From: a virus
DNA: 64,000 nucleotides
Direction: 5' to 3' (one strand)
Virus record (IMG/VR): IMGVR_UViG_3300028581_000012
A program made the position numbers and the translations under genes. Below, piece by piece: positions 8,603-63,462 of this stretch. Below the pieces are notes generated by a model. The model saw only the letters and a program-made list of their open reading frames with translations. It was not told where the DNA came from and searched no databases. The stretch's first letter is position 1. Every line of letters begins with the position of its first letter.

Positions 8603-8616
8603 ATTAGAAATATAAA

Positions 8617-37997: not shown

Positions 37998-40211
37998 TTA
38001 AAAATCGTACTTAATAGGATACTGTTGGACACCTTGTCTTTTTTCAGGTGATTGTATCTTAGAAATAACCATAAGTTCTTTGTCTGCATTGTAAAGTGCA
38101 ACTTCAGTAACATAAGGTGGTGTCGTACCATCCCAAGTTGGATTTGAAGAATCAAAGAATTGTGTTTGACCTAAATTACATAAGAAGTTCATAACATATA
38201 TAGTTGCTTGAATATCTGTTTCAATTGTACCAAAAAAGAAGAATTCACCACCAAAGTTTAATGTAACCCCCGTTTGATTTAATACAGGTAATGTTATATA
38301 ATCATTAAGGTCATATATTGGTGCAGTGTCATACATATTTTTTGTCAACTGTAAAGTTGTTCCAGTTAAACCTGTTACAGTTAGATAACCACCAACCGTT
38401 GTTGCTGATAACTGTGATGTGACATCAATTTCTCTCCATTGCGTTACATCAGGTCTTGTTGTTGCTGTTGTAACTTTTTGAGCCAATAACTTTATATCAT
38501 TTGCCGTAAATCCTGATGGTAATCCAACTGAAGGTACTTGTAAAAATGGGAACTCATTACCAAACCTAACAAGGATGTCAGAAGCGCCCGGTAATAAACT
38601 TTGGTCGTTTCCTGTGATTGTTTGGTAGTAATTACAATGAAGTGAATTTGTAAATGCTGAGTTATTAAATCTATATGTTAAAAACAAAGTTTCAGTATTT
38701 CCTGTTAACAATCCTTGAGTTCCACCTAAAACGCCACTAAATGTATTTGGTGTTACTAAACCTAATTTAGGTGCCGGTAAAGTCCAACTTCTATTTGATT
38801 TGTAATTTAATGCTGCAACTATTTCATCATCATCAAAAACAATAATTTTTAAATCAGGAAAAACCTTACCAACTCTATTTGGGATACCATTTGAATTTGC
38901 GTGAGTGTCCCAAAGATGATAATATCTTAAACCAGGAGCATTAAAGTTTATACTTTTTCTTGACTCAATATAATGTGGAGTAAATAAATTTAAACTAGTA
39001 AAACCTGATGGGTCTGTATATAATACTTCACCAGTTGTACCACTTGGATTTTTATGCCACATTAACCACGGAATTGAAAGTTTGAAGTTTATTGCTTGAC
39101 CTGTATTTCCCGGATTGTTTGCGTCAAAATCTTGCATTGCAAACTTTTCACCATAATAATTGTCTATTGCTTGATTTGTGTAATGTACAATCGCAATGGC
39201 CTTTTGTTCGGATGGTTTTAGAGTTATTTTTTCAGAAAATGAATTATAAAAATAAACTGAGTCAGTATCTGTTTGACCACTATCGGAATAGTAACCCAAA
39301 TATTCTTTAGAACCCGTATATCCTGTTGATGCGAATTGATTAAAGTCTTGGTTTACCGTATCAAAAATACCAGCCGGTGATTCTGTCCACGGAATGTTCA
39401 TATTCCAAACTTTAACATCATTTTGTGAAACATCACAATTAGTTTCAAAATTAAATACATTCGGATGCCAATAAGGTTCAGGTGTAAAAGAATCATAAAT
39501 AACAGTCATACCTGATGGGTAAAAAACAACTCTTGAGTCACCAGTATAACCCATTCCACTAAAGTTTGGTAGTTGTCTATCAACTTGTATATTTACGGTT
39601 GTCGCAGTAGATGTGTCACCTGTTACTCCAACCACAACATAACTAAATATCGGCGCCGCTCCTGTAAATGGTTGTATGTTATCCGTTCCAAATAAAAATA
39701 AAAACATTCCATTTGTAACTGTACCTGATACCGTTGGGTCAATACTTGAATATGTTAATGTTAATACATCTCCCGAGGTTACCGCCGAATTTGAAACAAT
39801 AAAATTTGGATTAATTGTATAGGCTGTTGAGGTGTATGCACTAAAAACAACGGGTGAGCCAGTTGACCCTGTGAAAAAACCACGAGGAGCTGCACTATTA
39901 AAAACATTATCTATGTAAGACGCATCAAATGGAACACCTAAAGTACTTCCTGATGTTGAGTCCACAAATAACGGGTATTTAACTTGCATTCTATTTTTTT
40001 CAGGAATTGGAGCTAAATTTTGTGCGTTGTATTGAGGCATTAAAACATTAAGTTGTACATAATCTGTATTACTTGTACAGTTATAACAAACTTCACTATC
40101 TCCTACCTCAAAATAAGAAATATCAAATTTACCTTGCGATATCTTTTTTCTTGCTGCGTCAGTGATTATGGTGTTAATTAACGCTGAGGTATTTTTGATT
40201 ATATATGACAT
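37998..40211 (-). CDS. virion structural protein (tail/baseplate)
   Basis: N-terminal 'ITDAARKKI..FEVGDSE' and C-terminal 'YVTEVALYN..ELMVISK' resemble tail-collar-fibre type proteins. Confidence 0.7.
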   Translation of the reverse strand: MSYIIKNTSALINTIITDAARKKISQGKFDISYFEVGDSEVCYNCTSNTDYVQLNVLMPQYNAQNLAPIPEKNRMQVKYPLFVDSTSGSTLGVPFDASYIDNVFNSAAPRGFFTGSTGSPVVFSAYTSTAYTINPNFIVSNSAVTSGDVLTLTYSSIDPTVSGTVTNGMFLFLFGTDNIQPFTGAAPIFSYVVVGVTGDTSTATTVNIQVDRQLPNFSGMGYTGDSRVVFYPSGMTVIYDSFTPEPYWHPNVFNFETNCDVSQNDVKVWNMNIPWTESPAGIFDTVNQDFNQFASTGYTGSKEYLGYYSDSGQTDTDSVYFYNSFSEKITLKPSEQKAIAIVHYTNQAIDNYYGEKFAMQDFDANNPGNTGQAINFKLSIPWLMWHKNPSGTTGEVLYTDPSGFTSLNLFTPHYIESRKSINFNAPGLRYYHLWDTHANSNGIPNRVGKVFPDLKIIVFDDDEIVAALNYKSNRSWTLPAPKLGLVTPNTFSGVLGGTQGLLTGNTETLFLTYRFNNSAFTNSLHCNYYQTITGNDQSLLPGASDILVRFGNEFPFLQVPSVGLPSGFTANDIKLLAQKVTTATTRPDVTQWREIDVTSQLSATTVGGYLTVTGLTGTTLQLTKNMYDTAPIYDLNDYITLPVLNQTGVTLNFGGEFFFFGTIETDIQATIYVMNFLCNLGQTQFFDSSNPTWDGTTPPYVTEVALYNADKELMVISKIQSPEKRQGVQQYPIKYDF

Positions 40212-40243
40212 ATTTTATAAATATATTTTTTTATAAATTTATT

Positions 40244-41818
40244 TTAAGAAAAACCTATTTTTTGTAAAGGCATAGTTTTAGGTGAACCGTTAACACTTAT
40301 ACCACTACAGGTTGATGGTGTTATAGTAACATTTGTAATTGAAACTGAATCCAATATATACCCTTCTAATTGACATCCTCTAAATTCTATAGTTGGTGTG
40401 TTAATAAATTGGGTAATTGTTCCGTTTATAAGTCCACCTGAAGATATTGTCGCAGTATAAGTATTTGTGTAAGAACTAAAGTTTATATAAGATGAAGCAC
40501 AAGAAGGTCTACTTAATCCTGTTGATGTGACAATTGAATTAACAGGTGAACTAAGTGTTGCACTACCAACAGTTGTTGCGGTTATTGAATTTGTAATTAC
40601 AGGAACGTTTGATGCGAATGTTTTACCTGTAAATCCAACGGCAGTATTAATTGTAAAGTTTACAGTTTTACCAGCAGGTAATGTAGGACTTACATTAATT
40701 TGATAGTACCAAGTTTTTGTTACGGTAGTCCCAACATTCACTTGATTAGCTAAAGGTGTCAAACTTAAATTTAAAACATAATTAGTAAATGCACTTTGTG
40801 GTGTTAGAGTTACTGATTGTGTTGTAACAGTATTATTGGTATCTTTAATATGAACTGTATAATTTCCAGCAACTAAACCTAAAAAGACATTTGACGCTTG
40901 GTAATTAACCCCATTTATTGAATAAGTGTAAGAAGGGACCCCACCATATCCTGTCACATTTAACACTCCATTACTTGTATTTGAGCAAGTTGGTTGGGTT
41001 GTTACAACAGATAATGTAAGTGGTGGTGTTGTGCAAACTCCTGTACTAACTAATACGGTTCCTTGATAAGTCCCTAACAATGACCAATTTCCTGTTGGTG
41101 GTGTTGTTGGTTGAAGTAGTGCGGGTACACCAGGATTAGTCCATCCACTTATTTCCCATCTTGTATTTCCTGTGTTGTAGTACATTGTTGTTGTTGAACT
41201 TGTCCAAGATGGGTATCCATTAATTGTTGAACCGCTTGTGTATGTGGTTAGATATGTGTTGTTTAATGAAGGAGTATATTCAAAACATAAATTTTGTGGG
41301 TAAACCGGTGTAGGTACTGGTGGTGGTAAACAATCTGAACAAGTATCAAATGGCCCTGTAGAAATTACTGCAAAATTATTTACATAGGATTGTCCCGTAT
41401 AAAGTGTTTGACCACTATGTGTCCAACAACCCGTTTGTGTTGTTAAACTATAAACTTTACCATCAACAAACTTAGATGGTAAATCGGCAACATAATAAAC
41501 AAAGTTTCCTGAATTTTGACAATCCTCAAATTGTTCCAAATAAAAACTATCATAGTCAACACTACAAGTTGTTCTTCCTGTAAAATCACCATAATAATCA
41601 ATAACCGTTGCGGTATAATCACCAGGTAGTAAGTTTGTTATTAAAGAACCTTGAGCTCCGTTGCTCCAAGAAATATTATATGGTGGTGTTCCTCCTGTAA
41701 CATAAAGAGTTATAAGACCATTTGTAGAATCAGGTGTTGACGCATTAATACTATCACAATCTAACCCCAATGGTAGAAGTGTTATTATATTACAACTATT
41801 TCCACTTAAAAGTCCCAT
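40244..41818 (-). CDS. SprB-repeat-containing virion/fibre protein
   Basis: 'TGGTPPYNISWSNG..NLLPGDYT', 'GGVPSYTYSING..GLVAGNYTVHIKD'. Confidence 0.75.
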   Translation of the reverse strand: MGLLSGNSCNIITLLPLGLDCDSINASTPDSTNGLITLYVTGGTPPYNISWSNGAQGSLITNLLPGDYTATVIDYYGDFTGRTTCSVDYDSFYLEQFEDCQNSGNFVYYVADLPSKFVDGKVYSLTTQTGCWTHSGQTLYTGQSYVNNFAVISTGPFDTCSDCLPPPVPTPVYPQNLCFEYTPSLNNTYLTTYTSGSTINGYPSWTSSTTTMYYNTGNTRWEISGWTNPGVPALLQPTTPPTGNWSLLGTYQGTVLVSTGVCTTPPLTLSVVTTQPTCSNTSNGVLNVTGYGGVPSYTYSINGVNYQASNVFLGLVAGNYTVHIKDTNNTVTTQSVTLTPQSAFTNYVLNLSLTPLANQVNVGTTVTKTWYYQINVSPTLPAGKTVNFTINTAVGFTGKTFASNVPVITNSITATTVGSATLSSPVNSIVTSTGLSRPSCASSYINFSSYTNTYTATISSGGLINGTITQFINTPTIEFRGCQLEGYILDSVSITNVTITPSTCSGISVNGSPKTMPLQKIGFS

Positions 41819-41819
41819 A

Positions 41820-43394
41820 TTACCAAGTTGCTCCGCTTATTCTTTTCCAACCTGTGTTGTCTTTATAGTAAAAATAACTATTGTCCCATCGTAAAGAACC
41901 GGGTTCTCCTAATGTGTCTAAACTACTTGTTGGTGTACCTGAATAAGCCAAAACAATGTTTGGAACATATACTGTATTTGATAATGTTGCAGTAATACCA
42001 GTCCCTCCTAAAATAACTGAACGAAATGTATTTACCGTATTTCCTGAACCACCAATAATTGCAGAATCATAAACTGGAGCTGAAGGTCCAGAACCCGTGA
42101 TGGTATTATATTTTCCTCCTAAAATTGTTGAGTTATCCGTATCACCACTCTGAATTAAATTAGAAATACCTCCTAATATCGCACCTTGTGAATTATTAAT
42201 TGTAGATTGTTTACTATAAACAAAAGATAATTCCCCGTTATTTATGTTGTCATTTCCCCCCGCAAAAGCTTTGTCTGAGTTAATTTGATTTGCTACCCCA
42301 ATAATAAATGAATTATTCCCTTCTATTTTGTTAGAGTCCCCAAAAGAAACTGAACTTGTTCCGACCACATAATTATTATTATTAAAAACACAAGAATTGA
42401 TGCCAAATACGGTGTTGGATTTTCCTTGTGCAAAAGTAGATTTACTTAATGCGTTATTAGTTTCATTTATAGCCATTGAAAAATCTCCCAAGGCTGCAGC
42501 ACTGCTACCTTTAGCGTTAGAAATGAATCCACCAACGTTTTGGTTACCATTCCAAGTAGAAACAGGCGCAGTATTTCCAACAACCGCAAATGAACTAGTA
42601 CTTGTTGAAATATCGTACAAATAAATTATTGTTTGACTTCCGTTAAAAGTTGCTCCTGATACTTTTCTATAGGTTTCAGTTAAAGTATTTGCATATGACA
42701 CATCATTTATATACACATAATCATCTGAAGTATATTCTGTTGTGATGTCACCATAAGAACTTGAAAGGTAAATAACTCCAGCAGTCAATCCTGTTGCTAA
42801 ATATCCTTTGTTTGTACCGGCCAAAGTTCTATAACCTTCAGCGTGTGAATAAGTACCTATTGCAATTGTAGTCTTACCTTCAGCGTGAGATGCATTTCCA
42901 AATGCAAGTGTGTTTTCACCTTCAGCGTGTGAAGTAATTCCTGACGCGATTGTACCTGAACCTTCAGCGTGTGTGTAATTACTTAACGCTTGTGTATTAT
43001 TACCAAACGCAAAAGATAAAGTCCCTTGAGCATCAGAACCTGTGGATTGAACTCTATTATGTACTGTTATTTCGTTTGAACAAGCATGAATATTTTCAGT
43101 GTAAAAACTTGTAATACAATTTCCCGAACCACCTGTAAATGGTGTTGTAAGACCTGAAACGGTAAAAGTTCCGCCAGTACTATTGGTAAAAGTTAATGTA
43201 CCTCCTGAAGAAACTGCAGTTCCACCTGTTAAATATACATCAGGTGAACCCCCAAATAAAGGTACCAACTGACTTAGTGATGCTTTATATGATGAACCAC
43301 TAGCACTTTGTGATGTATCACCTGTTATTACAATATGTATAAGGTCATTAAGTGAAGCCCCTGTGGCGAATGTCCTTGATGTTAAAGTTGCCAT
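41820..43394 (-). CDS. tail fibre/adhesin with YadA-like beta-roll repeats
   Basis: Repeated (S/T)HAEG; 'ILGGxxN' repeats; C-terminal 'GWKR'. Confidence 0.75.
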   Translation of the reverse strand: MATLTSRTFATGASLNDLIHIVITGDTSQSASGSSYKASLSQLVPLFGGSPDVYLTGGTAVSSGGTLTFTNSTGGTFTVSGLTTPFTGGSGNCITSFYTENIHACSNEITVHNRVQSTGSDAQGTLSFAFGNNTQALSNYTHAEGSGTIASGITSHAEGENTLAFGNASHAEGKTTIAIGTYSHAEGYRTLAGTNKGYLATGLTAGVIYLSSSYGDITTEYTSDDYVYINDVSYANTLTETYRKVSGATFNGSQTIIYLYDISTSTSSFAVVGNTAPVSTWNGNQNVGGFISNAKGSSAAALGDFSMAINETNNALSKSTFAQGKSNTVFGINSCVFNNNNYVVGTSSVSFGDSNKIEGNNSFIIGVANQINSDKAFAGGNDNINNGELSFVYSKQSTINNSQGAILGGISNLIQSGDTDNSTILGGKYNTITGSGPSAPVYDSAIIGGSGNTVNTFRSVILGGTGITATLSNTVYVPNIVLAYSGTPTSSLDTLGEPGSLRWDNSYFYYKDNTGWKRISGATW

Positions 43395-43418
43395 TTTTTA
43401 TTTTATATATATCATAGT

Positions 43419-43709
43419 TTATTGAAAGTCGTATGGTATTCCGTCTTGGAATTCAAAACATATTAAATTTTCAAATTGTTTATATGTGCAAAAACTATCT
43501 GAACAGAATTCACATCCATTTGCATCTATTATTTTAATAACATAACTGTTCATTGATTCAAAGGAAACAGGTAAGGTAAATGAATATGGTACGGTAGTAA
43601 TTGTTGCAATATATTGACAAGTACCATATATACCACATTCATCGCAAACCCACACGTCGTATGGACTTGTTCCTGATATAATTGTGTTAAGTGTTACTAT
43701 TGTTGCCAT
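43419..43709 (-). CDS. small structural protein, paralog family A
   Basis: 'SGTSPYDVWVCD..C.YI..IKIIDANGC'. Confidence 0.7.
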   Translation of the reverse strand: MATIVTLNTIISGTSPYDVWVCDECGIYGTCQYIATITTVPYSFTLPVSFESMNSYVIKIIDANGCEFCSDSFCTYKQFENLICFEFQDGIPYDFQ

Positions 43710-43711
43710 TT

Positions 43712-45322
43712 TTAACAAACTCCATTAACTGTGCAGAACTCAGTGATTACACCACTATTATCAACACTATAAATTTTATTTCCGTATCTTATATAATCAA
43801 TCGTCAAAGGATATAATAATGATGAATTACTATAAACTGTAACACCTGTTTGTATTTGATTAATTGAAGGGTGGGTATAGAATATTGTTTGAACTCCAAA
43901 GTTTGTTAATTGACATCCTGGACAATTAACTGAATATGCACCATTACCTATCCAAGTATTAAATGTACCAACGAGTGGTTCAACTTGTAAACATTCTGTG
44001 CAGTCAACATATGTTGTTGCTGTTGTCGCCGTAAATCTATCTTCATTTACCACAATATAACCTGAAGGTGGAACATAATTTATAAAGTATCCTACATAAC
44101 TATAACAATTTCCGGAATAATCCCTAATTACTTCTCCTGGGTCTAGATTTGTTGGTGGATATGCTGTTTGTGTAATCATAGATGTTGTCGTACAAGATGT
44201 GAACACAAAGTAAGTACCAGGGGCATATGTTGGTGTAGGTGTCGGCGTAGGTGTAGGTGTCGGAGTTGGTGTCGGAGTTGGTGTAGGTGTCGGAGTTGGC
44301 GCTGGACAAACAGTACATCCTGTGTACGCTGAAACAACAAGTTTAACTGTCGCGTTTGGACTAGCAGTTGTATCTTGTATGTAAGTTGCACATTTTAATT
44401 GGTCGTTAATGACACCCAAGAACGTCTGACCTGTTGTTATTGGTGTTCCTGATATATCTAAAGAACCTGAAACATAATAAGTGACGTTTTCATTACAATC
44501 TCTTAACTCTTTAACTCTAAAACATACAAAGTTTCCATCATCAATTGTAAATGTTACAGTTTCACCCGTTAAATTAATTGTTGGTGTCGGTGTTGGAGTT
44601 GGTGTAGGAGTTGGAGTTGGTGTAGGAGTTGTTCCACTAACTGTAATATCAACGGTAAACCCTGAACATATATCGGGTGTTGGTGATGGTGTCGGAGTTG
44701 GTGTGGGTGTTGGAGTTGGTGTGGGTGTTGGAGTTGGGGTTGGTGATACACATAACACATCAACTTCAAAATCAAATATATCACAAACAGGTGTTGGTGT
44801 TGGCGTTGGAGTAACACAAGAACCTGCGTAAAATAAATCCGTATATAAATTTGGACAAGTTGATAATGTTGGGTCTTGTCCAAAGAAATAACAACCTGTT
44901 CCAGGTGCTGTACCTAAACACCATTTTGTAGGTCCTTTATAAATGTATCCCGGTTGTGTTCCACCTGTAAAAAACGGTAAAGTATTATAACTTCCCGCCA
45001 CAACATAACTACCACTATATGCTGAAAAATTTACATCGTTAATTTGAACACAATACACATTTGAACAACATTCTCCCGTTGCGCAAAATGATGATGAGCA
45101 ACCTGATAGTTGTTGGGTGTATATTCCGTTAGGTACAATACTTGTTGCAGTGAATCCTGAAGTGAATGCAGATACTATAGTATAACATCCATTAACAACA
45201 ACACTATCATAAGTGACACTAAAAACTGTTGTAACAGCCGATGTTGCACCGGTCCAATTTGATTGGTCCGTATAATATTGTAATCCGGGATAACAACAAC
45301 TTTGTAAGAGTATATTCGCCAT
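43712..45322 (-). CDS. Cys-rich virion protein with mucin-like Pro-Thr tracts
   Basis: Four (PT)n runs separating Cys-rich domains. Confidence 0.8.
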
Positions 45323-45367
45323 TAAAAAATTAACTTTATAATATAAATAAGCTTATGTTTATTTTAT

Positions 45368-46165
45368 TTACAACTCAAGGTCCGTTTCTTCAGGAAGATA
45401 GTTATAAAAGTGTTTATATGCGTGAATAAAAGCAACATCGGGCTGTTCTTCCATAGGTATTGACCAACCACTTTTATCCCACCAATTTCCTTTATTTTTT
45501 GAATCGTATTCTGCCCAATCATTCCAAACACCACTTGTATAACCAAAAAATTGAAAAAGAAATGAAAGTGTCGCATCACACCACTCGATTGGTCTTGAAT
45601 CCAACTGATATATTTCACCCCAAGGAACCTCGTTTAAATTATTATATATTTCAATAAATTTTTTACGATTGAATATTGCCCCTCCACACGCACCATAACC
45701 TTCTAATGAGCCAATCTCACTCCAATAATGTCGTGATTCGTCTGTTATATTGAATTTGTTTTTCAAATATTTGTAAAGTTCAGGAGTATACATAGGTCCG
45801 TTTGCTCCCGCAATATCAAAAGTCGGTGGTTTTGTTATTTCACATTTACACCAAACATCATCTTCATAATGTATTACCCAATCAACGTCTTTTAATGTTG
45901 TCACACAAGCATCATAAATTCTTTTTAACCAATCCAAAGGTCCATTTTCACCTAAAAAAACCCTACCCGAATGAGGATTATTAATTCCTTGTTGTTCAAT
46001 CCAAGTATAGTCACAATTAAATTTTTTTGCAACAGGCTCTAATAATTTAGAACCATCTTCATATAACGCAACTGGAATGTTTGGGTAAATTTTTCTTAAC
46101 TGTTCTAGCGCTTTATAACAAGCAACAAGTTTATGCCCTGATTGATAAAATGCACCTATTTTCAT
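45368..46165 (-). CDS. GT-A fold glycosyltransferase
   Basis: 'ALYEDG', 'VIHYEDDVW' DxD-like motif, 'ACGGAIF', C-terminal 'FIHAYK'. Confidence 0.7.
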   Translation of the reverse strand: MKIGAFYQSGHKLVACYKALEQLRKIYPNIPVALYEDGSKLLEPVAKKFNCDYTWIEQQGINNPHSGRVFLGENGPLDWLKRIYDACVTTLKDVDWVIHYEDDVWCKCEITKPPTFDIAGANGPMYTPELYKYLKNKFNITDESRHYWSEIGSLEGYGACGGAIFNRKKFIEIYNNLNEVPWGEIYQLDSRPIEWCDATLSFLFQFFGYTSGVWNDWAEYDSKNKGNWWDKSGWSIPMEEQPDVAFIHAYKHFYNYLPEETDLEL

Positions 46166-47403: not shown

Positions 47404-47451
47404 AAAGAAAAATTATCAAATAAAGTATACAAATAAACATTTTTTTAAAAA

Positions 47452-48258: not shown

Positions 48259-48281
48259 AGGTTTTTATAAATAAATATTTG

Positions 48282-48569
48282 TTATGTTATTTTGATTCTA
48301 AATCCATCTTCTTGTAATATATAAAAACCATCTTCTTGTAATAAATAACTTCCACAATCAATTTGTATTTCTCTTATACACCCATCCGCAGTTATAACTT
48401 TAATATAAACAATGTCTTCATTTGGAAAAAAAACTGATGAATCTATTACGACATTTGGTGGGATAGAAGTGACCCCTGATACATAAAAACAAGATACGTT
48501 TGTTGGGTCACATATATAAACATCATATGGACTTGTGCCACTTGTTACTCCAGTAATTTCTATTATCAT
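48282..48569 (-). CDS. small structural protein, paralog family A with LLQEDG repeats
   Basis: 'SGTSPYDVYICD..IKVITADGC..YLLQEDGFYILQEDG'. Confidence 0.7.
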   Translation of the reverse strand: MIIEITGVTSGTSPYDVYICDPTNVSCFYVSGVTSIPPNVVIDSSVFFPNEDIVYIKVITADGCIREIQIDCGSYLLQEDGFYILQEDGFRIKIT

Positions 48570-48572
48570 AAT

Positions 48573-54945: not shown

Positions 54946-54977
54946 TTTTTTATTTTATAAATAGTTTATGTAATTTT

Positions 54978-56066
54978 TTATGTTTGATTAATTTTATAAT
55001 ATCCGTATCCATACCTAACCATATCACCTATATTATCAACTTCATTTAATCTTTGTAAAGGTTCAAAGGCACTATACTTACCTCTTTCAATGTAAACATC
55101 ACTTTGAACTTCGGGGTCCATAACAAAGTCTAATAGATATTCATTTTTTGTTATTGCCGAAAATAAAAGGTCGTTTTGGGTAAATCCTGAACTTTGAAGT
55201 AGGTATAATGTTTGCCCATTTGGAAAATCGTAATACGTAATGTCATTAATTGTGTATGAGGTATACCCTGAAGTTATTGAATTTATTTGACCGTATGGGA
55301 CTCCATTTTTTATAAAAGTATATCCAACAGTATATGGGTTAGGTCCCCATCTTTTTACGTCAGTTAATTTAGATTTAGTGAACCCCGATACAGGAAAAGG
55401 TACTGTCGTATAAGAACTTGATATTTGTGACGCTACGTTGTTTTGTGAATCACCTGTTGCAATAAAATCATAACTAACAGGTATTCCTGACCAAATACCA
55501 CCTTGTGGTGTAAAAGTAAAATTACCTTGTAAATTGGAAATGGTCACACCCGTCAAAGGGACAGTAATTGGTTTTTGAATAACCGTCATTCCAAATGTGT
55601 TTTGACCTGAAAAGGTTATAGTATAATCACCAGGTGTTGTCGGATATAAATGATTTAGTGGTTGGTTTGAAACTTGTTGTGTTGGGCTACCGTCCCCCCA
55701 ATCAACAAAGTAATTTGAAAGACTTATAAAAGATATTTCAATATCCCCCGATGTGTTATAGAAATATACATCATACGGACTTAAAGTATTTGCAGAAAAA
55801 ACAAAGTTTGCTAATACATCTTTTTGTAATAATAATCCGTCAAATTCACTATAAAATCCAATGTCATTCATTGTTTGGGTTAACATTATAGGAATTGTTA
55901 ACCCTGTAAGTAAAGAAGTTCCACCTGTACCACCACTTAAAATATAAGACATACCAGAATAGACACCAAACGTTTCAAGTCCTGTGTCACCACTATAAGT
56001 TTCTGTAAAAATATCTGATAAGATATTTTCAGGAGAAACAACTATTGAATATTTTTCAGCCTCCAT
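54978..56066 (-). CDS. structural protein with PKD-like domain
   Basis: 'VDWGDGS..HLYPTTPGDYTIT'. Confidence 0.7.
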   Translation of the reverse strand: MEAEKYSIVVSPENILSDIFTETYSGDTGLETFGVYSGMSYILSGGTGGTSLLTGLTIPIMLTQTMNDIGFYSEFDGLLLQKDVLANFVFSANTLSPYDVYFYNTSGDIEISFISLSNYFVDWGDGSPTQQVSNQPLNHLYPTTPGDYTITFSGQNTFGMTVIQKPITVPLTGVTISNLQGNFTFTPQGGIWSGIPVSYDFIATGDSQNNVASQISSSYTTVPFPVSGFTKSKLTDVKRWGPNPYTVGYTFIKNGVPYGQINSITSGYTSYTINDITYYDFPNGQTLYLLQSSGFTQNDLLFSAITKNEYLLDFVMDPEVQSDVYIERGKYSAFEPLQRLNEVDNIGDMVRYGYGYYKINQT

Positions 56067-56917
56067 TATGGGTTTCCGTATTCATACCATTTTATGACAT
56101 TAGTCGTATCACCAACTCTTAATAATGTTGGTGCTTGGTTTTGTTGTGGAATTTCTTTATAAACTTGGTATTCATAATTTGTAAAATCTAACTCCACTTT
56201 GTAGTAAAAGTATTGGGATTTATTAAAGTTAAATTCATTTCCTGCAGAAAATGTAGATTGTGGTTCATTCATAAATCTAACAAACTGACCGGTTTTTGCG
56301 TTAAAAAACTTTGCAGTCATATAAAATTCTGTAATATTAATAAAATCTCTTTCTTTTAACCAATAGATAAAAAACCCCTCTTTATCAGCCCCTGTGTAAT
56401 CTAACTTAAACTTTGGTTTTTTAACATTTACTTGGGTTTGATTATTTAAAGGACCTAAAAACCCAACTCTTGTTTGTCCTTGTTGTGTTGGAATTACAAC
56501 ACTAAAATATGCTTTTTGATTTTCATTTGTTTTTGTATCATAAAAATCTAATTTGAAAAAACTACCTTTAAAAGAGTTTACAAAATAATATAATTCAGGG
56601 TCTGTAAATGTTGCATTTGCATAATCAACGGACCAATCACTTGAAGTTGCTGAGGTAACTTGTACGGTTGAATCTAAAAAATAAAACTCATAGTTTATAT
56701 CAGTTTTATCGGGTGTTTGTAAGTAAGATGTATTTGCAAATCTTGTAGTTTCAAAATCATCAATACCATTTATCAAATCTTGTAATATATCTTTTTCAAA
56801 TTCAACTATACCATCATTTCTTCCTGCCATATCAAAACTTATTTCAACAGGAATATTAAAAAATGTGTCTTCCGGTGTTACACTAAATCTATAGTAGTTA
56901 TTATTCACAATCGTCAT
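56066..56917 (-). CDS. putative structural protein
   Basis: ORF track; operon context. Confidence 0.7.
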   Translation of the reverse strand: MTIVNNNYYRFSVTPEDTFFNIPVEISFDMAGRNDGIVEFEKDILQDLINGIDDFETTRFANTSYLQTPDKTDINYEFYFLDSTVQVTSATSSDWSVDYANATFTDPELYYFVNSFKGSFFKLDFYDTKTNENQKAYFSVVIPTQQGQTRVGFLGPLNNQTQVNVKKPKFKLDYTGADKEGFFIYWLKERDFINITEFYMTAKFFNAKTGQFVRFMNEPQSTFSAGNEFNFNKSQYFYYKVELDFTNYEYQVYKEIPQQNQAPTLLRVGDTTNVIKWYEYGNP

Positions 56918-58616
56918 TTATTATCTGTTGATATTCATTAGAGAATGTATTGTTGTTTCTTAGTATTGGGTACTGTAAAAATATGCAGTTTAAAAATGGG
57001 TAATGGGAACCATTTATAAATGGATTATTAACACCAATACCATCACTATCAATAAACCCATAGGTGTATAAATCCCTCCAAAACCATTTATTATTGTATT
57101 GACTAAACCAAGAATATCCAGGTATTCCTACTACAGATTTTTTATCACCATTTTCAATATAATCACTAAACGCTCTAATTGGTATAGAATAGTGTGGATT
57201 ATACAAGTAACCATCAGGATAGTTTTGATTACCTGTTGTTAAAAACAATATGTCATTAAATGAGTACTTATGAACCATTCTTGATAAAACATATTCTTTT
57301 TGTTCTATATAGTTGTACTCACAAAAATCCCCTGAAATAACATCACCCTGATTTAATATATCGTTATAATAAAAAGTTTGACCGTTATATAAATAAGAAG
57401 AAGTGGGAATGTTATCTTTATTCAAACTACTACTGTGATTCCACCACGTATCTATTGAGTTTTCTAAAAAGTTAAAGTTCCAACCAATATCAATACCACT
57501 TGGTATACTATTTTGATTTGGGAATGGTTTATTAAACCACCCCATATAACCTCGGTTAATAATGGTAAAAAACAATTCGGTGATTGGTTTTCCATTATTG
57601 TCAATATACCCCCCAATTTTAACATCCTTATCAAATGTGAATGAAAAACTTTGTGAATTATTTTTTACCGAAACTCTTTGTACTTGGTTTGGTGTAAGTG
57701 CTGAGTATTCTAATTTTTTATCAATTGCAAAAGGGTTATTTTCAAATCCAACTTTACCTACATTGCATTGCTCACTATTTTTTATTATTTTATGTAATCT
57801 TACATAATATATTGATTTTGTTTCCGCAGAGTTTGCAGGTTCAGTTATTCTTTTTAGGTTTCCGTAAATACCTGTCTGAACATCAATGGTAGGGTATTTT
57901 AAATCATAAATTGTAAAAACTTTTTCTTCTGAATTAATAGTACCATCACCCAAAGAATAAACTTGAAATACTGTTTTGTTATTTATTGGTGTTGATAGTT
58001 CAACGTATTGACCCACTTGTAAGTTATGAATTGTACCACAATAAAAATATACAAGTTGTTTTCCATTAAATTTACCTGTTGTTAATACATAAGGTATTCC
58101 ATCACCCGCCAAAAAACCACTATTAGTAACACCAAACTTTTCATCAGTATATGACATAGTTTGAGCCGTTGTACTTGAAAATGCATAACTCATATAAAAC
58201 GACCAATTATATGATGATGCACTTTTAGTGACAAACGGAATATGTCCAGTAATCCCACTAACTCTTACCATAGAAAACTCATCAAATTGAGGATTTCCTT
58301 CCCAAAAGTTTGCGTTATTTGTTGCATTTGCAATAGCATTTGTATAATACAAATAATTTTTAAATGGGGTATATGAAGTTTTACCTGTTACTGTATTATC
58401 AAACACATTTGTGATTTTACCTGCAACTCTAAACTTATCACTTGATTGTCTTTCTTGGTCAAAAATATTTTGTTGGTTTACAAGAATACTTCTATCCCCT
58501 TCAATTAACTCCCTTCTATCCCCAATTAAAGGTGGTTGTATCCAAACATCTCTGTCAACACTTCCGGCACTTCTTTCAGACCCAAGTACAATTCTTATTT
58601 CACTTTCGTTAGACAT
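56901..58616 (-). CDS. putative structural protein
   Basis: ORF track; operon context. Confidence 0.7.
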   Translation of the reverse strand: MSNESEIRIVLGSERSAGSVDRDVWIQPPLIGDRRELIEGDRSILVNQQNIFDQERQSSDKFRVAGKITNVFDNTVTGKTSYTPFKNYLYYTNAIANATNNANFWEGNPQFDEFSMVRVSGITGHIPFVTKSASSYNWSFYMSYAFSSTTAQTMSYTDEKFGVTNSGFLAGDGIPYVLTTGKFNGKQLVYFYCGTIHNLQVGQYVELSTPINNKTVFQVYSLGDGTINSEEKVFTIYDLKYPTIDVQTGIYGNLKRITEPANSAETKSIYYVRLHKIIKNSEQCNVGKVGFENNPFAIDKKLEYSALTPNQVQRVSVKNNSQSFSFTFDKDVKIGGYIDNNGKPITELFFTIINRGYMGWFNKPFPNQNSIPSGIDIGWNFNFLENSIDTWWNHSSSLNKDNIPTSSYLYNGQTFYYNDILNQGDVISGDFCEYNYIEQKEYVLSRMVHKYSFNDILFLTTGNQNYPDGYLYNPHYSIPIRAFSDYIENGDKKSVVGIPGYSWFSQYNNKWFWRDLYTYGFIDSDGIGVNNPFINGSHYPFLNCIFLQYPILRNNNTFSNEYQQIINDDCE

Positions 58617-61600
58617 CTTGGTTTAATATATACGCTTTAATGTATCTGTTAATGGCACTTTTACCTTTATTCAAACCAAAATAAAAATGGTTTGGTCCCC
58701 CAACAATAAATGACTGTTGTGTACCTGCCGGCCAGTTTGGATTTGCCAATCCTTGTGGTGTTTGATTGTAAATATAACCTCGTCTTCCTGTTGTTGATGG
58801 ATTAAAGTATGGTGTTGTTGGGGGGTTAAAACTAAAGTTTTGGTATAGTTGTGAGTAAAACCCACCATTAGATAAAACATTAGTATTCCAATCATTTGTA
58901 TCTGAACCAAATATTGATGATGTTGTGGTTGATGACCATTGATATGTTGGTACTAGTTGGGTATTTGGATACCCAAAATAATTTGTAAGTGTTGGTGTAA
59001 ATGTTTGAATACCAGGACTCAATGTTAATCTATTAACGGTATTTGAACTAAAGAATATACCCATTAAAGCATCACCTGTACCAAGGTATAATTCATTATC
59101 TGAATAATTATCTTCATCAAATTCTTCAATCCCATATTCAGAATTTATTGAAAACATTTGTGCAACATCCCCATCAATTCTGTCTTCACTTCTTGAAAAC
59201 ATTCTGTTTATTGATGCATCACCTAAACCTAAAACTTGTCCCCAAAAGTTTGAATTTATCAATCTTGAAATAATGAATAACTGTAAAATTTCAGAAGTGT
59301 CATTATACGATGTACTTTTTATTGACTCAATTAAATAACCTTCAAAGTTAGGGTTAGTACAAATTTCTTTTGTAAATTCATCTCTTGGTCCTAAATCCAT
59401 TATGGTTGTAGGGAAAAATAAATTACGAACATTCATTCCCTTAAAGTTTGCATCTTGCAAAGTTGGGCTTGCAAATGTTCCTTGTCTTGGTTTTTGACCA
59501 ATAAATTTAGTTCCATCGTAAATCGCACTTCTATAAAAAAGTGAATTCGTTGTTCCACGAGTATAAAATATTGGTCCTTGATATGGTCTTAATGTACTAT
59601 CAGGTGTTCCACAAAACTTATACTTTTTTGGTTGTCCTGTAATATTGAAAATTGTTTGTTTTTTTAACGAAAACATATATAGTGAACCATTCACCCAATT
59701 GTTTTGAAACACTTGTGAAAATATACCTCTACACGCAGCAAACACCATTCTAAATCTTGTCTTCCATTCAAAGAAGTAAGTAATGTCTTTTGGTATTGAA
59801 ACAATAAGTGGGTTATCAACAAACTTATAACATCCCCCCGACATTCTTTTGCCGTTAGGGTTTTCACTACAAGGATTTTGAACAGAAAATGAGGTTCCTC
59901 CCCCTTGATAACATTTAAGTACTGTCATATTTTCACAACTTAATGAAGCCAAGACTGTACTTGAAACTTGACTTGGAGTATCTCCTGTCAAATCTTGAGC
60001 ATTGTTTGTGGTATCACCGGGCCCATTTGTTGTTGGCGCCAACGCCGTTCCACCTTCTTCATCAACAGCATAAACTGAAAAGTTGTCATTTAAAAATAAA
60101 CTAAATGAACTATTACCACTTACTTCTGTTATATCTGAAGTTGGTAATCTATCAGACCTAAATACAATGTTTAATGAGTTAGATACTGATATATTAGAAA
60201 CCGCTGTTGTGTGGTAAGCCGGGGAATAAACTCTTGTTGTTGTAGTTGCAACATTTATTGGGGAACCTGGAGTTGCATTTGAAGCAATTAATGAACCACC
60301 TTCAATATTACCTTGAGGACTTAATACCCCATTTGTCCATTGGAACGCCAACTTATTGTTACCAACACTTGGTTGAATATTAGAGTACACACCAGGTGTT
60401 GATGTAAAATACCCTAAATTAACAACGTCACTGTTATAAGACTTAAATGAACTTTGTGATTTATCGGTTGAGTTGTAGTAATATGGTGCATTGTTTGTAA
60501 ATGCAGTAAATAATGTACTATCAGGTGTAAAACCAAAAGGTGGGTGATAAAGAGTCGCATTATTGTTATTTGATACTGAATGTGATTCAGGGGTTTTATA
60601 GTCATTAAACCATGCACCACTTCCTGAGTTTTGTTGTATTGGGACGTTCAAGTAATAACTTCCTTCAACAAAAGGACCTGTACCTAAGTTAAAACCAAAA
60701 ATTTTAGATAAGTCGTATTTAATATTTTGTTTTTCGGTGTATGGGTCAGTACCTCTTGTCAAAAATATTACTTCATAATTTGCAAAATCATCAATGAACT
60801 TAATTGGGAATACATAATCACATTGTTGTGGTAAAATTCCATAACAGAACCTTTGTGTTTTTTTGAATAGGTATTTGTTTAATAAACCACCAGTTGTATT
60901 TGTAAGTCCTGAAAACTGTGTTACAGTCCCCCCTGTAATTACTTGGAAATATTCAACACCGGCAGGGAATTTGTAATCTTTACCATCTTCAGATATTTTC
61001 AACTTTAAGTTTACGGTTTGCTGTGTACCTCCTTGTGTTATATAATTAACAGGGACTGTAACTAAACTTGAGGCATTGTAAGGTGTTGTACCTGTAATAC
61101 TATTAGTATTAAATTGATTTGAATTTGTAATTCCCGTTAAGTTAGGGTCATTGATTGAATCAGTGTCTTGGAATGTTAAAAGTTGTCCAGGTGGTAACCC
61201 ATTGAATGTTCCACTATCAACAAATAACATCATAATACTATCTGTAAACGGCTGTGACGCATCTACTGTTGTCGTGTTAGGTATTGTGTTTCTAACTGTT
61301 GTTTGAATTAAGTTATCCCCATCAAAATACCTTTGTCTTATATTTGCCAAGTTTAACGATTGGGATAATGTAACATCGTTTGCTAAAAATTTTATCCCTC
61401 CTTGAGCAGGAAACTCAGATATTGGAGTTTTTACTAATTTATCATTATCATTTCCAAGATTTTGATATTGATATCCAGCCATAGCTTGAGCAATACCATT
61501 GTTAAATGCCGCTGGGTCGTTTGATGTGGACGATAAAATAGAATTGTACGTACTATAACTTACTGTTGAATTAGTATCACCCAAAGGACTATTATTTTCT

Positions 61601-63462
61601 GATGATATTGATACATTAGCACTTTGTGCAAATCCACTTTGTGTATCATCTTCAGGTAAAGTTTCATCGGTACAAGGACACGCCTCACAATCAGGATATG
61701 ATAACATTGGTAAAGATATTCTTTTAAAAATATTTTCTTTACCTAACTTTTTTATCGCTTCTTTTTTACATCCACCTTGTGGTCTAGCACCAAAAGTTAT
61801 TGCTCTTATGGCTAAACAAATACCATAGATAACAACGTTTATTACCCATATTAATAAATTTATGATGATTCTTAATATTGGGTAGATAAACGCCAATACG
61901 TGTAAAAGTATTATAAGAATTATAAAAGTAGGGGTTATAATTATTGTTAATAAACTAAATAAAAAGAATATAAAATCAAAATTTCTAACACCGTCATTAA
62001 CAGGGAATCTATTTGTTGTTGTTGTACACCTTCTATCTGTTATTTCTTTTATCCCTAAATGACGACTTCTATTGAACCCCCATTTCCATCTATCTATAAA
62101 ATTTGCAACAGTATAAACTTTATTAAAATTAAATTCATAGAATTTATCATCACAATTAACGGCCTCTTGAATCATTTGTTGACCAATAGTTGTGTTTACA
62201 TCACCGTAGTCATCCCAATCAAGACTAAACGCATATGAATTTAACTGAGCTGTTAGGTCAGTAGGTGCATTCACATTTGCCGTTGTCCATCCCCATTCTT
62301 TTACATTAGGAACAAGATAATCGGCGCGTAATATACTGGCGTTCATACCATCTTCATTTTGGTATTGAATTCTAAATCTATATTTACCTTTTGTTGGTAT
62401 ACCCACGTTTGGGTCTGTTGAAAGTACTTGTTCTCCAAATTCATTTGTGGTTACGTAGTCTAAATTCATTGGCACGTTTGCCAACCAAGTACCATTATCG
62501 TCAATTATTTTTCCGCCTTCAGGTAAAGAGTACTGTTCTAAAGCGGGTCTACCGTTAATGTCGTAATTAATTGTTTGTCTGATTGCTAAAATTCTACCTT
62601 GACCTGTTACTAAATCACATAAATTACCTGAATCTTTTTTTGGTTTACAGTTTGATTTTAAAAAGTCTTCTTCACTTGTTGAAAATAAAGAACCCATAAA
62701 AACGGCCTGTGGTGTGATTTCTATACCTAAATCTCTTAAATCAAAATCAACTCTTGTAATACCAACATTACAAATGTTTTCTTCACCCCAAAAAGATGCA
62801 ACATCAATATCTTTTTTCTGACCAACTATTTGTGGTAATGAGTCCAAATCTGTTGATGCTTTAAGTTGGTCCCCATCAAATTGTTCAGAAGTCCCACGAC
62901 CCAATCTAATTAAGTCTGCAGGTCTTAGTGAAAAACACCCAATATTAGAAAGGTCTAAATCTAAAACCGCTGTTTGAATTCCTAACGGAACCCCTACAAT
63001 CATAAAGTCACCACTTTCATTTGTTTTGACAGTGTACTTATAATACTTTTCATAAACTTCTAATACTTCTTTTCGTTTCAGAACATCTTCAACATCAGGA
63101 AATGTACCTGTTGGGGTGTGACCTCCGTATTCTTTAACGTATGGAAGTAAATTATATCTAAACCCATCTTCATTTTTTTGGTCAGGTCTTTTGTATGGAT
63201 ATAATGTAGACACTATAGGGTCATTTTCATCAACAGCGTCTAAAGGTACGAATATTGAAACATTCGCATTTGGTACTCCGTAACCACCATTAACAATAAC
63301 TCGGCCAGCAACAACACCATAATCGGCACAGAATCTTGTGTACACATCTTCTTGTCTTAATTTTAGGGAAAGTATTTCCAAAAAATCGAAGTCTTGTGTG
63401 ACGTTGATTCTTAGATTTTGGTCTTTTAGTGGTTGAGCCTTTAGTCTGTACGTCTTGGTCAT
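58609..63462 (-). CDS. very large structural protein (N-terminal carboxypeptidase-regulatory-like beta domain, internal TM hairpin)
   Basis: 'GRV..GVPNANVSI..KTNESGDF..GVPLG'; ~60-aa hydrophobic segment. Confidence 0.72.
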   Translation of the reverse strand: MTKTYRLKAQPLKDQNLRINVTQDFDFLEILSLKLRQEDVYTRFCADYGVVAGRVIVNGGYGVPNANVSIFVPLDAVDENDPIVSTLYPYKRPDQKNEDGFRYNLLPYVKEYGGHTPTGTFPDVEDVLKRKEVLEVYEKYYKYTVKTNESGDFMIVGVPLGIQTAVLDLDLSNIGCFSLRPADLIRLGRGTSEQFDGDQLKASTDLDSLPQIVGQKKDIDVASFWGEENICNVGITRVDFDLRDLGIEITPQAVFMGSLFSTSEEDFLKSNCKPKKDSGNLCDLVTGQGRILAIRQTINYDINGRPALEQYSLPEGGKIIDDNGTWLANVPMNLDYVTTNEFGEQVLSTDPNVGIPTKGKYRFRIQYQNEDGMNASILRADYLVPNVKEWGWTTANVNAPTDLTAQLNSYAFSLDWDDYGDVNTTIGQQMIQEAVNCDDKFYEFNFNKVYTVANFIDRWKWGFNRSRHLGIKEITDRRCTTTTNRFPVNDGVRNFDFIFFLFSLLTIIITPTFIILIILLHVLAFIYPILRIIINLLIWVINVVIYGICLAIRAITFGARPQGGCKKEAIKKLGKENIFKRISLPMLSYPDCEACPCTDETLPEDDTQSGFAQSANVSISSENNSPLGDTNSTVSYSTYNSILSSTSNDPAAFNNGIAQAMAGYQYQNLGNDNDKLVKTPISEFPAQGGIKFLANDVTLSQSLNLANIRQRYFDGDNLIQTTVRNTIPNTTTVDASQPFTDSIMMLFVDSGTFNGLPPGQLLTFQDTDSINDPNLTGITNSNQFNTNSITGTTPYNASSLVTVPVNYITQGGTQQTVNLKLKISEDGKDYKFPAGVEYFQVITGGTVTQFSGLTNTTGGLLNKYLFKKTQRFCYGILPQQCDYVFPIKFIDDFANYEVIFLTRGTDPYTEKQNIKYDLSKIFGFNLGTGPFVEGSYYLNVPIQQNSGSGAWFNDYKTPESHSVSNNNNATLYHPPFGFTPDSTLFTAFTNNAPYYYNSTDKSQSSFKSYNSDVVNLGYFTSTPGVYSNIQPSVGNNKLAFQWTNGVLSPQGNIEGGSLIASNATPGSPINVATTTTRVYSPAYHTTAVSNISVSNSLNIVFRSDRLPTSDITEVSGNSSFSLFLNDNFSVYAVDEEGGTALAPTTNGPGDTTNNAQDLTGDTPSQVSSTVLASLSCENMTVLKCYQGGGTSFSVQNPCSENPNGKRMSGGCYKFVDNPLIVSIPKDITYFFEWKTRFRMVFAACRGIFSQVFQNNWVNGSLYMFSLKKQTIFNITGQPKKYKFCGTPDSTLRPYQGPIFYTRGTTNSLFYRSAIYDGTKFIGQKPRQGTFASPTLQDANFKGMNVRNLFFPTTIMDLGPRDEFTKEICTNPNFEGYLIESIKSTSYNDTSEILQLFIISRLINSNFWGQVLGLGDASINRMFSRSEDRIDGDVAQMFSINSEYGIEEFDEDNYSDNELYLGTGDALMGIFFSSNTVNRLTLSPGIQTFTPTLTNYFGYPNTQLVPTYQWSSTTTSSIFGSDTNDWNTNVLSNGGFYSQLYQNFSFNPPTTPYFNPSTTGRRGYIYNQTPQGLANPNWPAGTQQSFIVGGPNHFYFGLNKGKSAINRYIKAYILNQDV

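Follow-up and report, generated by a model that had tools for sequence, protein, structure and literature searches.

A pair of glycosyltransferase (GT) genes in the virion module of a jumbo phage, uncultured and of freshwater (lake) origin, appears, on balance, to encode a system that glycosylates the Pro-Thr (PT) linkers of neighbouring fibre proteins, whereas the motif [ST][GA]xT, in which these proteins abound, would be a separate trait and not the sequon of its GT60 enzyme. The genes lie in a stretch of 64,000 nt (IMG/VR record IMGVR_UViG_3300028581_000012; hereafter, the window) that covers part of this module. Relatives of the phage measure 282-295 kb, with a GC content of ~30%, and the presence of DnaJ, glutamine synthetase and SprB repeats fits a 'moraphage'-type phage with a predicted Bacteroidota host.

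As the first-pass annotation had noted, two GT genes (46162-47403 and 45368-46165, both on the minus strand) interrupt the structural operon. They overlap by 4 nt, are co-directional with the fibre/baseplate block that contains them, and are separated from the flanking fibre genes by gaps of only 45-48 nt. No terminator was predicted around the cassette, and a promoter/terminator scan gave nothing above shuffles. The neighbours described earlier were also found: a 536-aa Cys-rich modular protein with four PT tracts on one side (43712-45322, minus strand) and, directly upstream of the GT60 gene, a 268-aa fibre protein (47452-48258, minus strand) with a collagen-like (G-T/S-S)n run of GTS/GSS repeats at residues ~46-85, which matches a collagen Pfam family and a tail-fibre PHROG. 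Most proteins encoded in 37998-63462 are labelled structural by position, few being recognised by PHROGs or Pfam.

The 413-aa product of 46162-47403 is a GT60-family enzyme, as had been proposed, matching PF11397 (GlcNAc; E 6e-64, 217 bits against a cut-off of 21) and phrog_24687 (E 2e-104). It lacks an N-terminal signal peptide or membrane segment, and an ASYRD-type nucleotide-binding motif stands right at its start. All of the 49 phage homologues compared, those of XacN1 and RAS14 among them, share residues A8, Y10, R11, D12, D89, S90, H91, F194, G196 and E198; we take the family signature to consist of the ASYRD-type N-terminal motif, D-x-H and F-x-G-D-E. No PDB chain was detectable by sequence search. 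Matches at E<=1e-10 fell into 6656 database clusters, chiefly from freshwater metagenomes, and members of PF11397 also occur in the relatives: every sufficiently complete genome of the clade has a GT60, and those without a local copy carry one elsewhere, which leaves no clear GT60-free relative as a negative control.

No paper that dealt with GT60 in phages came up in full-text searches, and we know of no bacterial or phage GT60 that has been characterised, so that its donor, acceptor and linkage are deduced from the protist enzymes. By this analogy, the enzyme would move a sugar, probably alpha-GlcNAc, from UDP-GlcNAc to Thr/Ser or hydroxyproline of proteins. A hydroxyproline route was rejected, because the prolyl hydroxylase family PF13640 was found only in the distant G001 and is missing from G007 and G006, both close relatives, which favours direct Thr/Ser acceptors and sets the phage system apart from Skp1/Gnt1 of Dictyostelium. 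The protist enzymes (Trypanosoma cruzi TcOGNT-2, Dictyostelium Gnt2 and the Skp1 hydroxyproline GlcNAc-transferase Gnt1) belong to the same PF11397 family, although they have only ~250 residues of catalytic core in common with the phage enzyme. GT60 enzymes act on protein Thr in Thr/Pro-rich mucins, the T. cruzi enzyme having been assayed on KPPTTTTTTTTKPP (PMC3769586). The protist acceptor, Thr in Pro/Thr-rich mucin-like tracts, matches the context proposed here for the phage, and the initiating sugar is extended by strain-variable transferases, as we likewise propose. Cytoplasmic Gnt1 and the phage GT60 both lack a membrane anchor. Unlike the protist enzymes, the phage one is virally encoded and would act in the bacterial cytoplasm on virion proteins.

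The second gene (45368-46165) encodes a 265-aa protein with no match in Pfam or PHROG, not assignable to a Pfam/CAZy family by sequence, and each of its 131 homologues is labelled 'hypothetical'. A profile search of PDB sequences found no GT either. Its AlphaFold (AF2) model (pLDDT 90), however, matched GT-A enzymes of GT6/GT31 in Foldseek (among them B3GalT5; E 4e-9, probability 1.0, TM ~0.49), and both a DxD-type metal site (E101-D102-D103) and H248 are invariant in 42 homologues. Judged by its predicted structure, the protein is thus a new GT-A-fold glycosyltransferase. Membership of GT6 was rejected, given the lack of a Pfam match and identities of 11-16% in the structural matches; the likeness is one of fold only. 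The slot of this partner enzyme is hypervariable, since relatives hold HtrL_YibB, GT34 or GT29 genes in place of the novel GT-A, and non-clade phages hold GT8, GT2 or GT11. In the loci L021/L026, with flanks 96-100% identical to the window, the GT60 is only 52% identical and the second gene has been replaced.

The tracts of the 536-aa protein span residues 171-178, 193-216, 231-248 and 342-365 (window 44789-44812, 44675-44746, 44579-44632 and 44228-44299, respectively, all on the minus strand). Its gene, the only one in the window for a PT-tract protein, directly follows the GT cassette, as does its homologue in those relatives whose gene order was mapped. Among 22 longer GT60 loci, 21 have a PT-tract ORF one or two ORFs from the GT60 gene, and in G007 (292 kb, 99% complete, 324 ORFs) two of the three PT-tract ORFs flank the cassette (chance ~5e-4). 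Even where the GT60 gene lies up to 170 kb from the fibre module, in G001, G003 and G005, it adjoins PT-tract proteins. The association extends beyond the clade: G015 has tracts of up to 46 aa in ORFs just upstream of its GT60, L015 contains 128 PTP against 7.3 expected, G016 encodes a double-GT60 fusion with PT tracts in both neighbours, and in the cultured phages XacN1 and RAS14 PT-tract proteins lie 9-14 kb from the GT60. In Xanthomonas phage XacN1, the GT60 (ORF334, 37% identical to that of the window) is clustered with carbamoyltransferase and GT9 genes near the giant ORF325, within 9-14 kb of the PT-tract ORF350, ORF325 and a baseplate wedge gene. This phage differs in its gammaproteobacterial host, in its partner enzymes, in having been cultured and in its motif count (14 versus 15.9 expected). 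T4 has no PT-tract proteins. There are, however, exceptions to the pairing: L017 has a GT60 without a PT protein within 10 genes, and L039 and L048, contigs only ~10% complete, combine PT proteins and motif-rich fibres with a GT29-like gene instead of GT60. Across the contexts examined, then, Pro-Thr or Ser/Thr-Pro tracts go with GT60, and [ST][GA]xT does not. PT tracts are nevertheless common flexible linkers, and their adjacency to the GT genes could merely reflect joint membership of the fibre module.

The cassette might instead act on host envelope glycans, for example in blocking superinfection, or on phage DNA, leaving the PT tracts as plain linkers. To our knowledge, all characterised GT60 enzymes act on proteins; moreover, the phage enzymes have neither signal peptides nor membrane anchors, their genes lie within late fibre genes, and GT60 and PT tracts are neighbours in no fewer than six independent genomic contexts, which together make a non-virion target improbable. 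On its side, the best-known roles of phage glycosyltransferases are DNA glucosylation and serotype conversion (PMC12619734), and the partners HtrL/YibB, GT34 and GT29 are enzymes that typically belong to polysaccharide pathways; the T. cruzi GT60, in contrast, is a case of action on protein (PMC3769586).

As far as gene content and sequence go, the cassette is most economically read as a virion O-glycosylation system that the phage itself encodes. The cytoplasmic GT60 would put the first sugar, probably alpha-GlcNAc if it behaves as its family does, on Thr in the disordered PT tracts of newly made fibre proteins, the 536-aa protein being the first candidate, and the adjoining GT-A enzyme would extend it. 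Swapping of the partner slot between close relatives, while the initiating enzyme stays, would make the glycan strain-specific, and the outcome would be mucin-like, glycosylated linkers on tail appendages. The earlier claim that the phage glycosylates its own virion thus survives in part: the enzymes, their placement, the mucin-like tracts and the motif excess are in its favour, whereas the role given to the motif as the GT60 sequon is not borne out. Should fibre linkers indeed receive mucin-type glycans from GT60, a large proportion of aquatic jumbo phages would wear strain-variable sugar coats, with consequences for host recognition, particle stability, grazing and adhesion, and a protist-type pathway would operate in the bacterial cytoplasm.

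We know of virion glycosylation by phage-encoded enzymes only in mycobacteriophages. There, according to the summary of Freeman et al. 2023 in PMC12619734, phage GTs go with experimentally shown O-glycans on virion proteins, which are proposed to shield the particle, and the GT genes lie beside structural genes, as in the window. The mycobacteriophage glycans are at the C-termini of capsid and tail-tube subunits, whereas those of the window phage would be on putative internal PT linkers of fibres; the GT families also differ, the proposed initiator in the window being a GT60.

The motif [ST][GA]xT was counted in each protein against 1000 composition-preserving shuffles. Ten putative outer virion proteins, all encoded on the minus strand, contain 113 copies against 21.1 expected (z 20.7), a roughly fivefold excess. 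The 737-aa virion protein (37998-40211) is the richest in the motif, and the ~20 copies counted by eye were exact (20 versus 1.9 expected, z 13). The others are a 524-aa SprB-repeat protein (40244-41818; 9 versus 2.9); a 524-aa protein with YadA-head-like repeats (41820-43394; 12 versus 3.5), whose fibre gene varies most among relatives; the 536-aa PT-tract protein (14 versus 2.9); the 268-aa fibre protein (7 versus 2.0); a 95-aa protein (48282-48569; 2 versus 0.1), the G007 homologue of which carries a fused PT tract; a 768-aa SprB-repeat protein (48783-51089; 26 versus 5.0); and proteins of 982 aa (51089-54037; 8 versus 1.3), 362 aa (54978-56066; 10 versus 1.0) and 571 aa (56901-58616; 5 versus 0.5). 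Conversely, the 49 non-structural ORFs at 17-37991 have seven copies together, about what their composition predicts. The suspected excess over S/T/G composition, and its restriction to structural proteins, are therefore real, and composition alone is ruled out as its cause. The 790-aa protein called 'SbcC' is motif-free, as had been said, although its label lacks Pfam support. That nearly every structural protein is motif-rich was an overstatement: it holds for these ten, whereas the products of 43419-43718, 54037-54945 (302 aa, minus strand, same gene block) and 56066-56917 have no copy, and the 1617-aa ORF at 58609-63462 has 6 versus 3.0, which is not significant. The motif-free and barely enriched ORFs provide an internal contrast within the gene block.

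The excess requires all three fixed positions and their spacing. Ser and Thr serve about equally at position 0, whereas Thr is clearly preferred at the last position (5.3-fold, versus 1.9-fold for Ser) and this final Thr is the best kept; Ala replaces Gly in 32 of 111 copies, a hydrophobic residue precedes 64 of the 113 (9.5-fold), and the flanks hold almost no information. Codon usage at the motif residues does not differ from that in these proteins at large, which rules out a DNA-level cause; from these data, the motif is selected at the protein level. A single shared repeat domain was mostly rejected: hhalign links the SprB pair at 40244-41818 and 48783-51089 (97.7%), a C-terminal domain of ~110 aa common to 51089-54037 and 48783-51089 (90%) and, weakly, the 524-aa SprB protein to the 536-aa PT protein, while the motif-rich families are otherwise mostly unrelated in profile-profile comparison (probability <4%). 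Short sequons of surface proteins are known, including D-(S/T)-(A/I/L/V/M/T) of the presumed host phylum Bacteroidota and N-x-S/T; unlike the phage enzymes as proposed, they act outside the cytoplasm, and neither D[ST][AILVMT] (0.67-fold) nor N-x-S/T (0.88-fold) is enriched here.

Beyond the window, eight of 12 further groups of fibre-module proteins of the clade, lacking BLAST matches to the window proteins, show a 3-7.5-fold motif excess. In the G007 sheath and major capsid protein the motif is confined to non-core regions, with none in the cores. A repetitive fibre has 79 copies in 1530 aa, spaced at 5, 10 and 14-15 residues. Sequence comparisons thus indicate that the excess, a strong and clean statistical signal, is real, clade-specific and a property of outward-facing virion domains.

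These properties would suit a dedicated sequon of the GT60/GT-A cassette that covers nearly the whole outer virion surface, as the first-pass annotation had it: the fixed positions and spacing, the final Thr, the occurrence in profile-unrelated families and the non-core location in G007 would all be expected, as would the GT60 in every sufficiently complete clade genome and the likewise motif-rich proteins that adjoin the relocated GT60 of G001 and G003. The motif, however, does not follow GT60 between phages. The GT60 of the non-clade contig G015 is 60% identical to that of the window, closer than several in-clade GT60s (41-52%), and yet its 80 ORFs (52 kb) contain 26 motifs against 28 expected; G016 has 57 against 49.5, and there is no excess in L015, in L024/G016 or in the neighbourhood of the XacN1 GT60. 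In a quick IQ-TREE phylogeny, in which XacN1, RAS14 and L024 sit on long branches, the GT60s of motif-poor, non-clade phages branch from within each of the two deep GT60 types that the motif-rich clade carries. Furthermore, the motif sites in the 96-100% identical structural proteins of L021/L026 are unchanged despite the replacement of GT60 and its partner, and the PT-rich giant proteins beside the GT60 of G005 are depleted in the motif (6 versus 15.5). The co-occurrence of motif and GT genes suggested earlier is therefore contradicted by G015, L015, G016 and XacN1, and we regard the GT60-sequon proposal as highly doubtful. Since Thr is preferred at the last position, as a Thr-specific transferase would give, and the PT-tract protein has 14 motifs, GT60 may nevertheless have some role at the motif.

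Keeping the motif apart from the GT60-PT system, we lean towards its being mainly a lineage-specific strand-cap/turn signature of beta-rich domains. In the strict form of this explanation, to which we give somewhat less than an even chance, no modification ever takes place: the pattern of hydrophobic residue, capping Ser/Thr, small residue and strand-starting Thr would have spread via short beta-hairpin and fibre repeats and been kept by fold constraints. The 737-aa protein, which has no Pfam, PHROG or PDB fold match and only viral hypotheticals as Atlas look-alikes, has 328 IMG/VR relatives, with a motif excess in all 80 loci fetched (z 5-15). Its AF2 model is mostly beta, and motifs fall at strand/loop junctions, at strand ends and starts, as read from the secondary structure of a model of pLDDT 65. 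In this family new sites are rare, about as frequent as expected by chance, most copies being at inherited positions; motif residues are marginally better kept than other Thr (71% versus 58%, p 0.04), in columns of average or above-average variability. The frequent preceding hydrophobic residue and the ~90-aa repeat unit that includes the motif in L052 point the same way. On the other hand, a generic trait of beta-rich phage structural proteins was rejected, because the motif is not in excess in comparable proteins of T4 (baseplate, sheath, capsid, Hoc and fibres; 29 versus 28), of the XacN1 region, or of G015 and G016. The mostly profile-unrelated families, the use of Ala, unusual for a turn requiring Gly, the nearly information-free flanks and the motif in the disordered context of the (PTPTGTT)7 linker of G007 likewise argue against a purely structural signature.

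A second modification system that reads the motif is the live alternative. The best candidate is a TibC-type autotransporter heptosyltransferase (BAHT), fused to GT4 and methyltransferase domains, that would hyperglycosylate beta-rich loops, an assignment of the motif to another phage enzyme that we judge unlikely. A 1497-aa ORF of G007 matches TibC (PDB 4RAP; E 1.4e-70, residues 722-1061) and has GT4 and methyltransferase domains; homologues occur in the three clade genomes at least 96% complete (3/3) and in G009, and are absent from the non-clade contigs G015 and G016. At the mapped TibC sites the modified Ser precedes small residues (NSGGA, TSAAV); these sites lie in beta-helix loops, many per substrate (PMC4358343), and so resemble [ST][GA] at strand/loop junctions; the 5-, 10- and 14-15-residue spacing in the repetitive fibre and the excess in the eight BLAST-unrelated groups would fit a trans-acting reader. 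More generally, TibC and AAH, which act on TibA and AIDA-I, are cytoplasmic and place many sugars on Ser-(Gly/Ala) loops of beta-rich repetitive adhesins, an analogy from which the link to the phage motif is put forward as a hypothesis. TibC, however, modified Ser and not Thr (PMC4358343), whereas the motif takes Ser and Thr alike at position 0 and keeps its final Thr best; the BAHT substrates are beta-helical autotransporters, and Thr at +3 is not required. The gene also lies ~100 kb from the virion module, beside a giant GTS-repeat fibre depleted in the motif (18 versus 87), the neighbours at 80 BAHT loci surveyed show no clear motif excess, and XacN1 carries a GT9 gene with no excess nearby.

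In its broader form, a tentative proposal that we hold to be unlikely, hydrophobic-[ST]-[GA]-x-T would be a new O-glycosylation sequon read by a phage enzyme throughout a widespread clade of freshwater jumbo phages and, with the GT60-PT linkers, would yield a two-system glycan coat. Such a sequon would be a simple predictor of outward-facing virion surfaces, marking exposed loops on fibres, the baseplate periphery and the decoration domains of sheath and capsid; as its reader, the TibC-type heptosyltransferase-GT4-methyltransferase fusion would be the most plausible enzyme and GT60 a less likely one.

The window has a GC content of about 30% and carries nearly all its genes on the minus strand. 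Its left 37 kb encode two DNA methyltransferases (N6/N4 type, 5718-6566; D12 N6-adenine type, 15903-16751), a glutamine synthetase (7184-8305), a full-length DnaJ (17034-18005), a sigma-70 factor (26925-27740) and a primase-like protein, a gene set that appears to fit the published lineage of freshwater 'moraphages', with genomes of 200-307 kb and predicted Bacteroidota hosts (PMC12619734); near-complete genomes related to the window span 282-295 kb. A 790-aa ORF in this part (28360-30732), called SbcC in the first-pass annotation, had no Pfam match; the presence of a calcineurin-like phosphoesterase, which may be SbcD/Mre11-like, at a distance of 2 kb (32830-33609) makes the label plausible. 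From 37998 to 63462 runs a co-directional, tightly packed block of large Ser/Thr-rich proteins, few of them recognised by PHROGs or Pfam (SprB repeats, YadA-head repeats and a collagen-like stretch), with a PHROGs/Pfam baseplate-wedge match just beyond it (63537-63962). The 737-aa protein at 37998-40211 (minus strand) has 328 relatives in IMG/VR, and the adjacent large proteins at 48783-51089 and 51089-54037 share their C-terminal domain, which is about 110 aa long (hhalign probability 90%).

The first-pass annotation had noticed glycosyltransferase genes, their repeat-bearing neighbours and an excess of the motif [ST][GA]xT (Ser/Thr-Gly/Ala-any-Thr) in this block, and our analysis confirmed this observation. 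Searches against PF11397 showed that 46162-47403 encodes, as claimed, a clear GT60 protein, whose ASYRD, D-S-H and F-x-G-D-E positions do not vary among 49 phage homologues. The second gene of the cassette, 45368-46165, had no family match and 131 database homologues, every one unnamed, with an invariant E-D-D triplet; its AlphaFold model (pLDDT 90) has the anticipated GT-A fold, nearest to GT6 and GT31 enzymes. The downstream neighbour of the cassette bears four Pro-Thr tracts and the upstream one a collagen-like (G-T/S-S)n stretch.

The gene adjoining GT60 is a hypervariable glycosyltransferase slot, occupied by the novel GT-A enzyme, HtrL/YibB, GT34 or GT29 among the motif-rich relatives of the window (hereafter, the clade), and by GT8, GT2 or GT11 outside it. 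The arrangement matches that of a system whose initiating enzyme is conserved and whose extension steps diversify. In one relative, L021/L026 (IMGVR_UViG_3300020161_002856), the structural genes flanking the equivalent of 45368-47403 are 96-100% identical to those of the window; GT60 identity is only 52%, and an unrelated HtrL_YibB-family gene takes the place of the second one, a clean swap indicating recombination at the slot.

Across genomes, GT60 is accompanied by Pro-Thr tracts. The window's single ORF with such tracts is the gene next after the cassette, and in the 99% complete relative G007 (IMGVR_UViG_3300034117_001582) they occur in three of 324 ORFs, two of which flank the two-gene cassette. 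The relocated GT60 of G001, G003 and G005 still abuts proteins with Pro-Thr tracts. Outside the clade, proteins just upstream of GT60 in contig G015 have tracts of up to 46 residues; PTP occurs 128 times in L015 versus 7.3 expected; G016 (IMGVR_UViG_3300033066_001396, 7210-10419) encodes a protein of about 1070 aa in which one GT60 domain directly follows another, with proteins carrying Pro-Thr tracts or SVTP-type repeats on both sides; and in phages XacN1 and RAS14 tract-bearing proteins lie 9-14 kb from GT60. This association agrees with what is known of the family, which favours Thr in mucins rich in Pro and Thr as its acceptor (PMC3769586); no prolyl hydroxylase was found in close relatives. 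From gene content and context, the best reading of the cassette is an O-glycosylation system, initiated by GT60 and varying between strains, that would act on Pro-Thr linkers of fibre proteins. In G001 (IMGVR_UViG_3300027621_000003, 60000-78700), about 22 ORFs that are co-directional and poor in Ser/Thr come after the relocated GT60 and may form a large island for glycan synthesis.

The motif behaves differently: its excess is real, clade-specific and not tied to GT60. The earlier by-eye counts, 20 in the 737-aa protein and none in the 790-aa ORF, were exact. Compared with composition-preserving shuffles, ten block proteins are enriched, with 113 pooled copies versus 21.1 expected (z 20.7); the claim that nearly every structural protein is studded with the motif is an overstatement, as three small or medium-sized proteins have none and the 1617-aa protein (58609-63462, minus strand) is not significantly enriched. 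The 49 ORFs left of the block together contain seven copies, the chance level, and in G007 only about 20 of the 324 ORFs are enriched. Of 12 additional fibre-module protein groups in relatives, none of them similar to any window protein, 8 also showed a 3-7.5-fold excess, and profile-profile comparison indicated that the enriched families are mostly unrelated. The 1530-aa fibre of L052 (1-4593) carries 79 copies arranged in repeats, each about 90 aa long, with TGGT, SAGT, TGLT and SATT at 5-, 10- or 14-15-residue spacing. There was no excess in the baseplate, sheath, head, Hoc and fibres of T4 (29 versus 28).

The first-pass annotation had proposed [ST][GA]xT as the dedicated sequon of the cassette. 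In relatives without GT60 beside their fibre genes, the gene is located elsewhere, at distances of up to 170 kb, and it is absent altogether only from fragmentary contigs. GT60 is a poor candidate for the motif reader, because GT60 occurs without a motif excess outside the clade, these outside GT60s are nested among those of the clade in the tree and the motif sites survive the L021/L026 swap. Phages outside the clade carry GT60 genes 56-63% identical to that of the window; G015 has 26 motifs across its whole 52-kb contig versus 28 expected, and L015, the 124-kb G016 and the XacN1 region (14 versus 15.9) have GT60 and no excess. In a tree obtained with a quick method, the clade has two deeply separated GT60 types, with the outsiders nested in both. 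The motif sites of the structural proteins flanking the L021/L026 cassette are unchanged despite the swapped GT60 and partner.

The motif may instead be a lineage-specific structural signature or a tag for another modification system. In an unbiased tripeptide-pattern scan, SG.T, TG.T, SA.T and TA.T ranked highest, with PT repeats alone ahead. The excess needs all three fixed positions and their spacing: a final Ser reduces it to 1.9-fold, and shifted spacings or other second residues show none. Of the 113 copies, 64 come directly after a hydrophobic residue; Pro never occupies the free position, charged residues seldom do, and the flanks are almost information-free. Codon usage equals background, indicating selection at the protein level. 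In G007, nine of ten copies in the tail sheath lie at residues 124-345, none within the conserved core, and all five in the major capsid protein fall outside the HK97-fold match; in a moderate-confidence model of the 737-aa protein, copies lie at strand/loop junctions. Within this family a few sites occur universally and many only patchily among subclades, rare sites arise at about the chance rate, and the final Thr is retained only marginally better than other Thr. A 282-aa protein of G007 (169964-170812), which begins with a leader-like segment and ends in a helical domain, has the motif in a disordered context, a (PTPTGTT)x7 mucin-like linker.

Clade genomes encode additional glycosyltransferases, among them a 1497-aa fusion in G007 (174918-179411) of GT4, a TibC-type heptosyltransferase (E 1.4e-70 to PDB 4RAP) and a methyltransferase. 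Homologues of the fusion occur in each of the three clade genomes whose completeness is at least 96%, as well as in a 75% complete one, and in neither of two non-clade contigs (G015, G016). TibC decorates a beta-helix with many heptoses at Ser-Gly-Gly and Ser-Ala-Ala loops (PMC4358343), which resemble the first half of [ST][GA]xT; however, it left Thr unmodified (PMC4358343). In a survey of 80 loci around TibC-type enzymes, motif excess in neighbours was not clear-cut, and the fusion as motif reader is a lead rather than a result. Near it, a 2919-aa GTS-repeat fibre (181308-190067) is strongly motif-depleted (18 versus 87), and a separate 308-aa GT9-like gene and a PA14/GLEYA-domain protein adjoin this region. 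At the genome end opposite GT60, G001 (287400-293200) carries two 2OG-Fe(II) oxygenase (PF13640) genes near a GT2 gene and two TibC-like genes.
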